Positions 205 to 2,263 of a stretch of DNA of 2,716 nt are shown in pieces. The stretch's first letter is position 1. The number at the start of each line of letters is the position of its first letter. Under the pieces are notes generated by a model, which had not been told where the DNA came from, searched no databases, and saw only the letters and a list, made by a program, of their open reading frames with translations. Both the position numbers and the translations under genes were made by a program. This DNA is from Escherichia coli (GTDB lineage: Bacteria > Pseudomonadota > Gammaproteobacteria > Enterobacterales > Enterobacteriaceae): assembly GCF_003334315.1 (NCBI RefSeq), contig NZ_QOWR01000108.1. One strand, 5' to 3'.

Positions 205-2263
205 CGGCAATACATAGTGCGCAATGCAGCGTGAGTTCGCGCCGTCTCCCCACTGAACCAGTAATTCACCAGACAATGGCGCACCACTTAAATAAACTTG
301 CCCGTCATCACCCACCATACTGGTTATTCCGGTACTGTTTTCCCGTACCAGTGATCCAAACGGCACCGGTTTTCCGCCCTGGGTAACGGTAATGAGCGCC
401 CGCACGCCTATGCGGGTATCAAAATTGGCACGAACCAACGCGCCTTGCGTCGGCACAACGCTGCTAATATTTTTTTCAACATCGATGGAATTCCCCATCG
501 TATTGGTATCAAGCGCGATACGGTTATACCGATAAACCGTGGCATACGGCATCACCGCATAGCCGCGCCAGTCGGTTAAAATGCCAGTTTGATTTTCAAT
601 GCGTACACCGCCTGCGCCAGGTGCTTTAATCAAAACATTGGTATCCCCTAAAGGCTGGCTCAGCGTTATGCCATTTTCATGCCCGACCACACCGCCAGAC
701 AGCTGCCAGTTAACGTCATGTTGATCGCGGTCGTAGTTATACCCGACCCCCAGCGTACCGTAAGCGGCCTGCCAGTTTGCCGTGGCGCTGCCCGTGTACC
801 CATTATTCGAGGTATCACCCTGGCTTACGTGATAACTCAGGTTGTGGCCTTCCAGTAAGGTCCCACCTACACCTGCCAGCCAGCTATTTTGCCCGTTGCT
901 GTTACGGTTGGCGTTAAAGGAGGCATAAGCGCGGTCGAGCGCATTTTCCCGGGTGTAGCGACGTTTGGTCAAAACATTGAAAGGCACTGAAACATTAAGT
1001 CCGACAATACGTTCGTTATCGGGGATCCCTACAGATTCATTCCACGAAAATGAGAGCGAATAACTGATGCCAACCCAGCTGCTGGTATACCCCACCTGAT
1101 ACCACGTATCTGAATCCGAAGTATTCCAGTATTTTTGATGGGTACCAGAGATATAAAGCGAGCCAAAGTCATTAAGTGATTGTGAAATATTTAACTGCAA
1201 ACGGTCTTTACGGCTAAAGCGTAAATTGTGGTAATTCACGATTATCGGTTCATCGCGATGCTCACCGTCGTAATCGTAATCATATTCGTACCCCTCCATT
1301 CGACGATACGCAACATCATCAAGGGTATAAAAACCTTGTGTCGAATAGCGGTAACCCATTAACTGAAAATTGGTGCCGAAGGTGTTCATTGATTTCGCAT
1401 AGAGGAAGCGAATGGAATCCCCCTCATGACGACTGTCGTCGGCTAACTGACTGCGCGCATGCGTTACATCCAGCGACACTGCGCCCCAGTTCCCGAGGTT
1501 GCGCCCCAGCCCTAACAAAAAGGCGGTGTAATTGGCAGATAATTGCGTCCCGCCGTAGGCAGTAAATTCCTGTGGTAAACCACCGAGTGCCGTGCCCTGA
1601 AAAAAGAAAGGTGATGATTGCTGACTATTACCGCTACGAAAATCGCCCGCCGTCAGATCAAATTTGAAACGCCCTTCGCGTTGTAAAATTGGCACTGTTG
1701 AATACGGAATTGTGTAATTCTGCTGATTGCCATCGCGCTCGTCGATGGTGACGTCCAGATCGCCATTTGAAGATGTCGGGTGCAAATCTGTAATTTCAAA
1801 AGCGCCGGGGGAAACATAGCTTTGATAGATAATAAAACCATTTTGCCGAATCGTTAGCTGGGCCGCCGTACGGGCAATCCCACGTACCGTTGGGGCAAAC
1901 CCTTGCTGGCTATCAGGATACATATTATCAGAAGAATAAAGCCGTACACCACGAAATCCAACGCCATCGAAAATATCACTTCCTGTATTGCCGTCTCCCA
2001 TTACCAGTTCACTTTTCAGCGGAATAATGGCGCGCTGTACCCAGGTGCCAATATTATTCCACTGTTCTGAATGATATCCATTTCCGCGAAAATAGTTCCA
2101 GGAACCATTGTTGCGTAAACGCCACGGGCCAATATTAATCCCGCTGAGCTCACTAAAAAAATAGCTATCGTTACCATTACCTCTGTTACCGGTGAAATTA
2201 TAATTCAGGAGTAAAGCAGGAATACCTTCATCCCACTCTTCAGGCGGAATGTAACCGTGAGCG
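205..2263 (-). pseudogene. Outer-membrane fimbrial usher (FimD/PapC family), internal fragment truncated at both ends by IS1; about 686 codons in one open frame
   Basis: The minus-strand translation carries conserved usher blocks: [24 protein letters not shown] (cf. FimD [25 protein letters not shown]), [66 protein letters not shown] (plug region), [23 protein letters not shown]...[56 protein letters not shown] and [33 protein letters not shown]. Composition is Gly/Asn/Tyr/Ser/Thr-rich, typical of a beta-barrel. There is no native start codon, signal peptide or N-terminal domain at the 5' side and no native stop at the 3' side; both ends abut IS1 termini. The specific usher paralog cannot be assigned without a search. 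Confidence 0.9.

Follow-up and report, generated by a model that had tools for sequence, protein, structure and literature searches.

An internal fragment of the fimbrial usher gene sfmD enclosed by IS1 on both sides in Escherichia coli, very probably the remnant of a recent inactivation

Does a long uninterrupted reading frame reveal that a truncated gene was inactivated only recently, and which events inactivated it? This question is raised by a stretch of E. coli DNA of 2,716 nucleotides, here called the window, in which the larger part of a fimbrial usher gene lies between two pieces of the insertion sequence IS1. The gene is sfmD. The sfm operon is a 'cryptic' type-1-like chaperone-usher fimbrial operon of E. 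coli, and SfmD is a member of the FimD/PapC usher family. A first-pass annotation, made from the letters of the window, had proposed recent inactivation of the usher gene by IS1 and had based this mainly on the open frame. We compared the window with complete and draft genomes, protein families and structures, and with simulated neutral gene copies.

Results

Alignment with intact sfmD defined the extent of the fragment and of its reading frame:

205 to 2263, minus strand: sfmD fragment, nucleotides 489–2547 of the 2610-nt intact sfmD coding sequence
2262 to 205, minus strand: in-frame part of the sfmD fragment, codons 164–849 of 869

An uninterrupted frame of 686 codons had been described at 205–2263, and these coordinates proved to be right within one base. 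From 2262 to 205 on the minus strand the window contains 686 sense codons and 0 stops, and base 2263 is the leftover third base of sfmD codon 163. A run of 686 open codons has a probability of 3e-16 in random sequence of the composition of the window. The composition profile of the window is unremarkable, and an Rfam search of the window returned no family.

Pfam analysis of full SfmD revealed PapC_N (PF13954) at residues 38–187, Usher (PF00577; E = 5.7e-222) at residues 202–777 and PapC_C (PF13953) at residues 786–850. The conserved usher blocks had been called intact, which is correct for the Usher domain, located wholly within the fragment (164–849), and for PapC_C, retained except for one residue (fragment end 849, domain end 850), but not for the signal peptide and PapC_N, of which just residues 164–187 are left. 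The fragment covers the beta-barrel translocation domain with its plug, CTD1 and most of CTD2, while the signal peptide, nearly all of the N-terminal chaperone-subunit binding domain and the last 20 residues of SfmD (850–869; the end of CTD2, including Cys864) are absent. The NCBIfam model PRK15198 matched the fragment with 1533.9 bits (cut-off 975) over profile positions 155–840 of 860. In a structural comparison, the solved FimD structures 3rfz, 4j3o and 6e14 can be aligned end to end with full-length SfmD, structure 1ze3 of the N-terminal domain of FimD corresponds to SfmD residues 37–161, all lost from the fragment, and the FimD barrel construct 3ohn starts at SfmD residue 164. As nearly all of PapC_N and the signal peptide are lost, the fragment is usher-derived, but not a functional usher gene.

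The fragment was matched in 4149 of 5426 complete E. coli genomes. Sequence of sfmD occupies a median of one place per genome in this collection, that is, no second copy of sfmD per genome was indicated among the complete E. coli genomes. All complete genomes that were examined have the identical sequence in the locus folD-sfmA-sfmC-sfmD-sfmH-sfmF-fimZ.

On the right-hand side, the following features were identified:

2264 to 2716, minus strand: right-hand IS1, IRR end and 3' part of insB (IRR 2264–2290, exact 27-nt match)
2279 to 2656, minus strand: partial insB open reading frame, NCBIfam NF033558 (IS1 family transposase), 127.9 bits (cut-off 100)
2255 to 2263, no strand: CCGTGAGCG, copy in the window of the 9-bp target-site duplication of the right-hand IS1

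The right end of the window falls inside this IS1, and the element is incomplete here. Its continuation can be seen in CP53, whose sfmD copy is identical to the fragment and has the same right-hand IS1. There, a 768-bp IS1 carries CCGTGAGCG on both sides, and beyond it follow the 5' piece of sfmD (first 166 codons), then sfmC and sfmA. The duplication as well as this layout were found in six of the seven clade genomes examined. The right junction arose by simple insertion of IS1, with duplication of a 9-bp target. In Z1323PEC0011, a deletion made by the IS1 at the right junction has removed sfmD', sfmC and almost the whole of sfmA, which represents continuing erosion at the sfm operon.

The right junction was found as an exact match of 25 + 25 nt in 20 complete-genome records (18 strains); the hosts are pigs, poultry, frogs, dogs and people, the countries China, Korea, Singapore and Ecuador. 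As the right-hand insertion is present in 18 strains from several hosts and countries, it is older than the spread of the clone. The right-hand IS1 piece itself shows one mismatch (position 2588, C versus A) to the IS1 found at this site in 7 complete genomes. Such a mismatch is to be expected if several IS1 copies were merged during short-read assembly, and the IS1 flanks of the window are not attributable to particular copies. Probably the window represents one entire short-read contig, broken off where the assembler met the multi-copy IS1.

The left-hand side comprises two features:

1 to 204, minus strand: left-hand IS1, its last 204 nt up to the IRL end (IRL 176–204, exact 29-nt match)
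205 to 213, no strand: CGGCAATAC, the nine bases adjoining the left IS1 end, a target duplication only if this IS1 arrived by simple insertion

The left-hand piece includes the promoter region of IS1 and the first part of insA, and the window ends within the element; in the draft contig L004, InsA (Pfam Zn_ribbon_InsA and HTH_Tnp_IS1) is called just past the left end. Over its 204 nt, this piece matches the IRL-proximal part of the 768-bp IS1 of CP53 without a difference, and the left and right IS1 copies have the same orientation, both lying on the minus strand. The first-pass annotation had spoken of IS1 truncations. Both terminal repeats are present, but the right-hand one belongs to a simple insertion.

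The left junction is exact in only two complete genomes, C 236-04A and BKQWHE, and a metagenome scan for it gave 0 matches. In both genomes, the far side of the IS1 is joined to the 5' part of fimZ and the genes sfmH and sfmF are gone; the left junction there is a deletion joint with no target duplication. For the window, two outcomes can be predicted: a simple insertion of the left IS1 should show GCTGTAAGCTTTGCTTCGGCAATAC joined to GGTAATGACTCC on the far side, with a 9-bp duplication and with the 3' end of sfmD and sfmH retained, and an adjacent deletion bordered by this IS1 should show a fimZ–IS1 or other joint on the far side.

The junction of the IRL of IS1 with sfmD nt 2547 occurs on three sfmD alleles, namely that of the window and the drafts, that of C 236-04A and that of BKQWHE. 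The alleles of C 236-04A and BKQWHE differ from that of the window by 27 SNPs and a 2-bp insertion and by 16 SNPs and a 6-bp deletion, respectively, and the carriers of the junction have differing IS1 variants and differing far-side end points in fimZ. The chances are about even that IS1 strongly prefers sfmD nt 2547 as a target, in one specific orientation, and that this hot spot was hit in at least two or three independent events. Alternatively, a single ancestral junction may have been spread by short recombination tracts, for which the distances would leave room: on the sfmD side, the closest SNPs that tell the alleles apart are 170 and 343 bp from the junction, and on the IS1 side ~190 bp. 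If the hot spot is real, the locus would serve as a natural assay of how IS1 chooses its targets.

No complete genome in the collection searched carries both junctions, and the top matches to the whole window are combinations of IS1 pieces with a locus containing one junction. The two junctions occur together in draft E. coli assemblies as IS1-bounded contigs of 2.3–2.6 kb, found in at least three NCBI drafts (GCA_002462895.1, GCA_004380855.1 and GCA_004172665.1), in which the fragment is identical at 2059 of 2059 nt. The arrangement creates a fused reading frame:

178 to 2277, minus strand: fused open reading frame of 699 amino acids, from a TTG start in the right IRR to a stop in the left IRL

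The TTG start is situated one base past the insB stop, within the IRR of the right IS1, and the 686 sfmD codons are followed by 8 IS1-encoded residues (GDAANLLI) and the stop inside the IRL. PF00577 is recorded also for this product, and the exact 699-aa sequence is found in GenBank as TFA80511.1, 'fimbrial protein [Escherichia coli]'. Annotators should regard this entry as the product of a fused pseudogene and not as a gene.

One can speculate that the fused product or its transcript acquired a new role, and that purifying selection keeps the frame open. Read-through into the frame is conceivable, because the TTG start is located downstream of insAB in the same orientation, and in fimbrial operons of Shigella flexneri, transcripts were detected downstream of IS elements (PMC6854044). 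We nevertheless consider such a role very unlikely. A product without signal peptide and N-terminal domain would be an outer-membrane barrel that cannot be delivered, and the same region is deleted or further interrupted in other strains. Promoter-like sites are not enriched (7 found, 3.8 ± 2.1 expected), and the promoter and terminator scan of the window did not exceed the shuffled expectation. Purifying selection for another role had been named beforehand as an argument against recent inactivation, and no sign of it was seen: the fragment's own branch has 0 substitutions with which selection could be measured, leaving dN/dS undefined, and the seven clade relatives contribute just two singletons in the fragment, of which one is nonsynonymous and the other synonymous.

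In the transposon Tn9, two IS1 copies in direct orientation surround a passenger segment. The layout of the window is similar, with two direct-orientation IS1 copies bracketing a segment of 2.06 kb (IRL at 204, IRR at 2264). Yet there is very little probability that IS1-sfmD'-IS1 is a Tn9-like composite transposon moving as a unit. The fragment occurs once per genome, in the native sfm locus wherever its context is visible, and the right IS1 possesses its own 9-bp duplication, which indicates that it arrived on its own. A plasmid search yielded 6 matches, all with the full-length fragment and annotated as sfmD in three of six; five of the six records are 1.2–4.9 Mb in size and look like chromosomal DNA filed as plasmids.

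The age of the inactivation was addressed by sequence identity and by simulation. The fragment and intact sfmD are identical at 2059 of 2059 nt (100.0%) in all of the best 30 complete E. coli genomes listed, and the proposal of a recent inactivation is thereby borne out. Long-term drift relative to orthologs, which the first-pass annotation had held to be incompatible with its reading, was not observed, with 0 substitutions compared to intact alleles. The total divergence of the fragment has a 95% upper bound of 0.145%, and the clade relatives show only 12 SNP columns across 10 kb of flank. Where intact sfmD alleles do differ from the fragment, the differences are almost only synonymous (dN/dS 0–0.11), as illustrated by CH10508 with 36 synonymous and 0 nonsynonymous changes; therefore, all of this divergence predates the inactivation.

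The open frame, which had been used as the age argument, is real, but carries little information by itself. In a neutral-copy simulation, in which ~4% of substitutions create a stop, copies with 10% indels were open with P ~0.5 after 5 mutations (0.24% divergence), and copies without indels reached P ~0.5 after ~17–20 substitutions (0.8–1%). With 10% indels, the probability of an open frame was 0.27 at 0.5% divergence and 0.08 at 1%; with substitutions only, it was 0.45 at 1% divergence. The open frame alone is weak evidence of recent inactivation, and as such is also compatible with a pseudogene of moderate age (P = 0.08–0.45 at 1%). That the window holds an old pseudogene whose frame stayed open by luck is scarcely credible, however, in view of 0 differences in 2059 nt from both the intact alleles and the CP53 copy, of the low upper bound of divergence and of the few SNP columns in the clade flank. 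Gene conversion from a second sfmD copy, by which an old pseudogene might have been rejuvenated, is countered by the median of one place per genome. Inactivation of sfmD thus appears to be recent, a conclusion supported mainly by the identity to intact alleles. 'Recent' here refers to the mutational clock; the inactivation is not recent within this isolate, because the right-hand insertion was inherited by 18 strains.

It is hardly conceivable that the window is a chimeric contig joining unrelated IS1 ends to a normal sfmD, even though it ends inside IS1 on both sides, has a size fitting a repeat-bounded short-read contig and contains an IS1 base (2588) matching none of the clade copies, since the junctions recur base for base in closed genomes (right in 20 records, left in 2) and independent assemblies of at least three NCBI drafts produced the double-junction contig. 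The uncertainty is confined to the identity of the IS1 interiors and does not concern the junctions.

The first-pass annotation had also suggested a lineage with expanding IS1 populations, Shigella-like in kind. Shigella genomes harbour a hundred or more IS1 copies. In the right-junction clade, chromosomes gave 24 to at least 40 IS1 matches versus a median of ~10, and every member of the complete-genome set in which either junction occurs belongs to E. coli and has 24 to at least 40 IS1 copies. The suggestion is correct with respect to the IS1 load, but the lineage is an IS1-rich commensal or livestock E. coli and not Shigella. The annotated complete-genome collection comprises E. coli only, and the comparison with Shigella draws on a published study (PMC6854044) and on general knowledge. 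The shared right junction and the identical allele suggest that the source of the window belongs with the CP53 clade.

Discussion

Our results make it very probable that the window is an internal piece of sfmD, the usher gene of the Sfm type-1-like fimbriae, which was recently isolated by two IS1 events. In a first step, which is directly documented, IS1 transposed into sfmD at nt 489–497 and made the 9-bp duplication which is observed at this site. Codons 1–166, encoding the signal peptide and the domain for chaperone-subunit docking at the N-terminus, were thereby parted from the rest of the gene. This step alone kills the usher, since what lies downstream has no means of export to the outer membrane. 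An IS1-rich E. coli clone occurring in livestock, pets, frogs and people has inherited the insertion.

In a second step, sfmD nt 2547 was joined to another IS1 end in the same orientation; the sub-lineage concerned is known from draft assemblies only. The junction is observed directly; the route leading to it may have been a second simple insertion or an IS1-mediated adjacent deletion from the sfmH/sfmF/fimZ side. An adjacent deletion is what the sole two complete genomes with the left junction show, and adjacent deletions are a standard outcome of IS activity (PMC11708052). On the mutational clock, both IS1 events are very recent. The fragment very probably has no function, and its frame is open solely for want of any mutation so far.

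A fimbrial usher gene broken recently in this way is ordinary and already known in kind, and the meaning of the window beyond annotation is small. It serves as a clear example of the erosion of a dispensable fimbrial operon by IS1 in a commensal or livestock clone of E. coli that is rich in IS1, in the order of an insertion and a second IS1 joint, with adjacent deletions in sister strains. From a methodological point of view, it illustrates that the age of a 2-kb pseudogene is little told by its open frame and much by its identity to intact alleles.

A literature search on sfmD with IS1 returned no match, and comparison was made with the following systems. Intact E. coli SfmD shares with the window 100% nucleotide identity over codons 164–849, the domains Usher and PapC_C and the PRK15198 assignment, but the gene in the window is incomplete, with codons 1–163 and 850–869 cut off by IS1. 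The CP53-like clone has the identical nt 489 junction, 9-bp target CCGTGAGCG, IS1 orientation and sfmD allele. It keeps the 3' end of sfmD, sfmH, sfmF and fimZ, whereas in the window sfmD is joined at nt 2547 to a second IS1 end; in RefSeq, the CP53-like locus appears as a partial fimD, IS1A and a 'FimD/PapC N-terminal domain-containing protein'.

The sfmD–fimZ joints of C 236-04A and BKQWHE contain the same IS1(IRL)–sfmD nt 2547 junction as the left side of the window, but on other sfmD alleles, with other IS1 variants and without the nt 489 insertion. Together with Z1323PEC0011, they exhibit IS1-driven erosion of the same operon as in the window. Finally, the sfmD and fimD pseudogenes of S. 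flexneri 2457T are examples of IS-disrupted adherence operons in IS-rich Escherichia (PMC6854044). The window differs from Shigella in that its fused reading frame was deposited as E. coli and that the junction carriers have a far lower IS1 count, yet the IS-disrupted ushers of Shigella represent the same kind of event as that observed here for sfmD.

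Organisation of the window and its fused reading frame

The fragment, an internal piece of the fimbrial usher gene sfmD, lies between two pieces of IS1 in the window:

1-204, minus strand: IS1 end; a 29-nt IRL probe matches 176-204 in reverse complement
205-2263, minus strand: usher sequence (sfmD fragment) between the two IS1 pieces
2264-2716, minus strand: other IS1 end, with IRR at 2264-2290
2279-2656, minus strand: IS1 transposase ORF (NCBIfam IS1 transposase model, 127.9 bits, cut-off 100)
178-2277, minus strand: sole long ORF in the ORF listing of the window, 699 aa

The two IS1 pieces share the minus strand and therefore form direct repeats; window 1-204 matches without difference the 204 nt nearest IRL in the 768-bp IS1 of E. 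coli CP53. The first-pass annotation had described a 686-codon open usher frame at 205-2263, and both frame and coordinates proved correct for a gene read from the minus strand: the 699-aa ORF spans 686 sfmD codons (2262..205) with 0 stops, for which P = 3e-16 in random sequence of the same composition. Base 2263 is left over as the third position of sfmD codon 163. The ORF starts at a TTG within IRR, one base past the insB stop (window 2275-2281, minus strand), and ends with eight IS1-encoded residues followed by a stop within IRL. This TTG start is accepted by gene callers, and the product has been deposited in GenBank as TFA80511.1, 'fimbrial protein [Escherichia coli]'. With a TTG after the insB stop, an IS1 in the same frame and orientation could hand ribosomes to a downstream gene remnant.

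Read-through transcription of the fused ORF could occur, since insAB lies immediately upstream of it; the 699-aa product is devoid of an export signal. Promoter-like sites showed no enrichment in the window, an Rfam search of the window returned no family, and the region is deleted or further interrupted in other strains; thus, there is no evidence of function for the fragment.

Identity of the gene and what remains of the usher

A megablast search of window 205-2263 against 5,426 complete E. coli genomes gave a match in 4,149, one per genome, in genes annotated sfmD, sometimes 'fimD', within a folD-sfmA-sfmC-sfmD-sfmH-sfmF-fimZ locus. All 30 matches listed, nearly all of them intact genes, showed 100.0% identity over 2,059 nt; in an even-step sample down the ranking, the first five rows had at least 99.9% identity and the floor was 98.3%. 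No megablast match to the fragment was found in 1,277 of the 5,426 genomes; in roughly one genome in four of this species sample the sfm operon is missing or has diverged too far.

The fragment corresponds to nt 489-2547 of the 2,610-nt sfmD coding sequence, i.e. codons 164-849 of 869. In full SfmD, Pfam places the following domains:

Residues 38-187: PapC_N
Residues 202-777: Usher
Residues 786-850: PapC_C

Solved FimD structures align end to end with full SfmD; the isolated FimD N-terminal domain structure 1ze3 covers residues 37-161, and the crystallised barrel construct 3ohn begins at residue 164. According to these domain and structure alignments, the fragment retains the barrel, the plug, CTD1 and almost the whole of CTD2, while the signal peptide, the chaperone-subunit docking domain and the last 20 residues are gone. 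A working usher cannot come from it. In the sfmD of strain BKQWHE we observed a 6-bp in-frame deletion at window 1268-1273; the K-12 allele is 6 nt shorter as well (867 vs 869 aa), presumably through the same indel.

An inherited IS1 insertion forms the right junction

The right junction, where IS1 IRR meets sfmD nt 489 (window 2263/2264), was searched with a 50-nt query, 25 nt either side, so that seeding was possible only across the junction. Among complete E. coli genomes, full matches occurred in 20 records representing 18 strains, here called the clade. In CP53, one of its members, the IS1 of 768 bp has CCGTGAGCG on both flanks, and beyond it follow the first ~166 sfmD codons, then sfmC and sfmA. 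The right junction is a simple, inherited IS1 insertion.

We compared 20 kb around this junction in seven clade genomes; their hosts are pig, duck, frog, dog and human, and their countries of origin China, Korea, Singapore and Ecuador. Six of the seven share the layout of CP53. The exception, Z1323PEC0011, carries an adjacent deletion made by the same IS1 on its IRL side (locus ~10026-10800), with loss of the sfmD 5' piece, sfmC and all of sfmA except the first ~30 nt, which indicates that erosion of the sfm operon is still under way within the clone. The 10 kb left of IS1 contain 12 SNP columns and two single-base indels across the seven genomes. Only two of the 12 SNPs fall inside the 2,059-nt fragment (T236S in NT1F31 and a synonymous change in ET220), so that SNP density there is no higher than in the flanks; the window carries the clade consensus sequence.

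The left junction and the origin of the arrangement

The equivalent 50-nt query across the left junction, where IS1 IRL meets sfmD nt 2547, matched in full only C 236-04A and BKQWHE among complete E. coli genomes; a metagenome scan yielded no further match. In both genomes IS1 abuts, on its far side, the 5' part of fimZ, with different end points (positions 1825 and 1902 on the CP53 locus), and sfmH and sfmF are absent, which identifies these joints as IS1-associated deletion joints without target duplication. The nt 489 insertion is absent from both. Compared with the window, the sfmD allele of C 236-04A has 27 SNPs and a 2-bp frameshifting insertion, and that of BKQWHE 16 SNPs and the 6-bp deletion; the IS1 copies of the two genomes are distinguished by 30 positions, with 28-30 differences among the variants including that of the window. 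The same junction thus occurs on three distinct sfmD alleles (window 204/205; C 236-04A locus 6055/6056; BKQWHE locus 4768/4769), the closest discriminating SNPs lying 170 and 343 bp away from it. Either an IS1 target hot spot or the spread of a short junction-bearing tract by recombination would explain this.

No complete E. coli genome has both junctions. The exact 699-aa fused product was found on four contigs of 2.3-2.6 kb; the three shown, from the NCBI drafts GCA_002462895.1, GCA_004380855.1 and GCA_004172665.1, have the order IS1 end, fragment, IS1 end, with the fragment identical at 2,059 of 2,059 positions. An assembly chimera is unlikely, as each junction is present in closed genomes and the pair in independent drafts. 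The window is most likely an entire short-read contig of a draft E. coli assembly, ending at the repeated IS1 where assembly stopped. This would account for base 2588, a C in the window, being unmatched in the seven clade copies, all of which have A at this site; the discrepancy probably reflects collapsed IS1 copies, and the IS1 flanks of the window are accordingly not assignable to a particular copy.

The sequence comparisons show that an IS1 insertion at nt 489-497 split sfmD and that a second IS1 end, in the same orientation, is attached at nt 2547. The second joint may stem from a further simple insertion, or from an adjacent deletion that entered from the sfmH/sfmF/fimZ side; the latter route is what C 236-04A and BKQWHE display, and adjacent deletion is a standard IS outcome (PMC11708052). 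The direct repeats could also be read as a mobile Tn9-like composite. This reading lacks support: each genome has a single copy, located at the native locus, the right IS1 carries its own duplication, and 'plasmid' matches are full-length, five of six in records of 1.2-4.9 Mb. These five PLSDB records seem to be chromosomes, or parts of chromosomes, that were entered as plasmids.

Age of inactivation and selection

The first-pass annotation had deduced recent inactivation from the open frame. This conclusion is upheld by the comparison with intact orthologs that it had proposed, in which no drift was apparent (0 differences in 2,059 nt in the listed matches); the absence of stops, on which it had relied, is a poor argument. 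Stop-creating changes make up 3.7-4.2% of possible substitutions in the fragment, and in simulations the probability of a still-open frame was 0.52 after 5 mutations (0.24% divergence) when one tenth were indels, and 0.45 after 20 mutations (0.97%) when only substitutions occurred. An open frame by itself therefore measures age only bluntly.

As the fragment does not differ from intact alleles, its summed branch length is at most 0.145% (95% upper bound). Short-term rates in Escherichia/Shigella are ~2-6 x 10^-7 per site per year, with which this bound would correspond to a few thousand years at most. Pairwise differences among clade members of ~1-9 per 10 kb, two assemblies looking error-prone, suggest an age of the first insertion in the order of 10^2-10^3 years, a rough and undated estimate. 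The first insertion is older than the spread of the clone, whose present range takes in many hosts and two continents or more.

Compared with intact alleles that are more distantly related, the fragment showed 11 synonymous and 4 nonsynonymous differences (K-12), 19 and 0 (O157:H7), 33 and 1 (U1), 36 and 0 (CH10508), 30 and 0 (SCU-301) and 18 and 4 (O111:H8). The resulting dN/dS of 0-0.11 indicates that this divergence all accrued under purifying selection, when the gene was working. In K-12, sfmD counts as a cryptic fimbrial gene; despite this status, purifying selection on it is strong across E. coli, with three pairs showing 19-36 synonymous and 0 nonsynonymous differences. Selection of the fragment for a new role is unsupported, given zero substitutions in it. 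An old pseudogene whose frame stayed open by luck is excluded by its identity with intact alleles.

IS1 load and comparison with Shigella

The first-pass annotation had proposed counting IS1 copies in the full genome; in clade chromosomes the load is raised, with 24 to at least 40 IS1 matches where the median over all genomes is 10. IS1 was also observed at several other positions in or beside sfmD and sfmH in many complete genomes, 113 genomes have stitched matches to at least 80% of the window, and IS1 lies inside the fragment in ET650, which has the identical allele, and in ETEC H10407. The sfm operon looks like a frequent IS1 target.

The initial observation is confirmed and its interpretation is supported, though its reasoning and the likeness to Shigella call for caveats; the finding is ordinary and nothing new in kind. 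The analogy holds insofar as an adherence operon inactivated by insertion sequences is a familiar picture in Shigella, where S. flexneri 2457T has an sfmD usher pseudogene as well (PMC6854044). It fails in that the lineage here is E. coli, with an IS1 load that is raised yet below Shigella scale.
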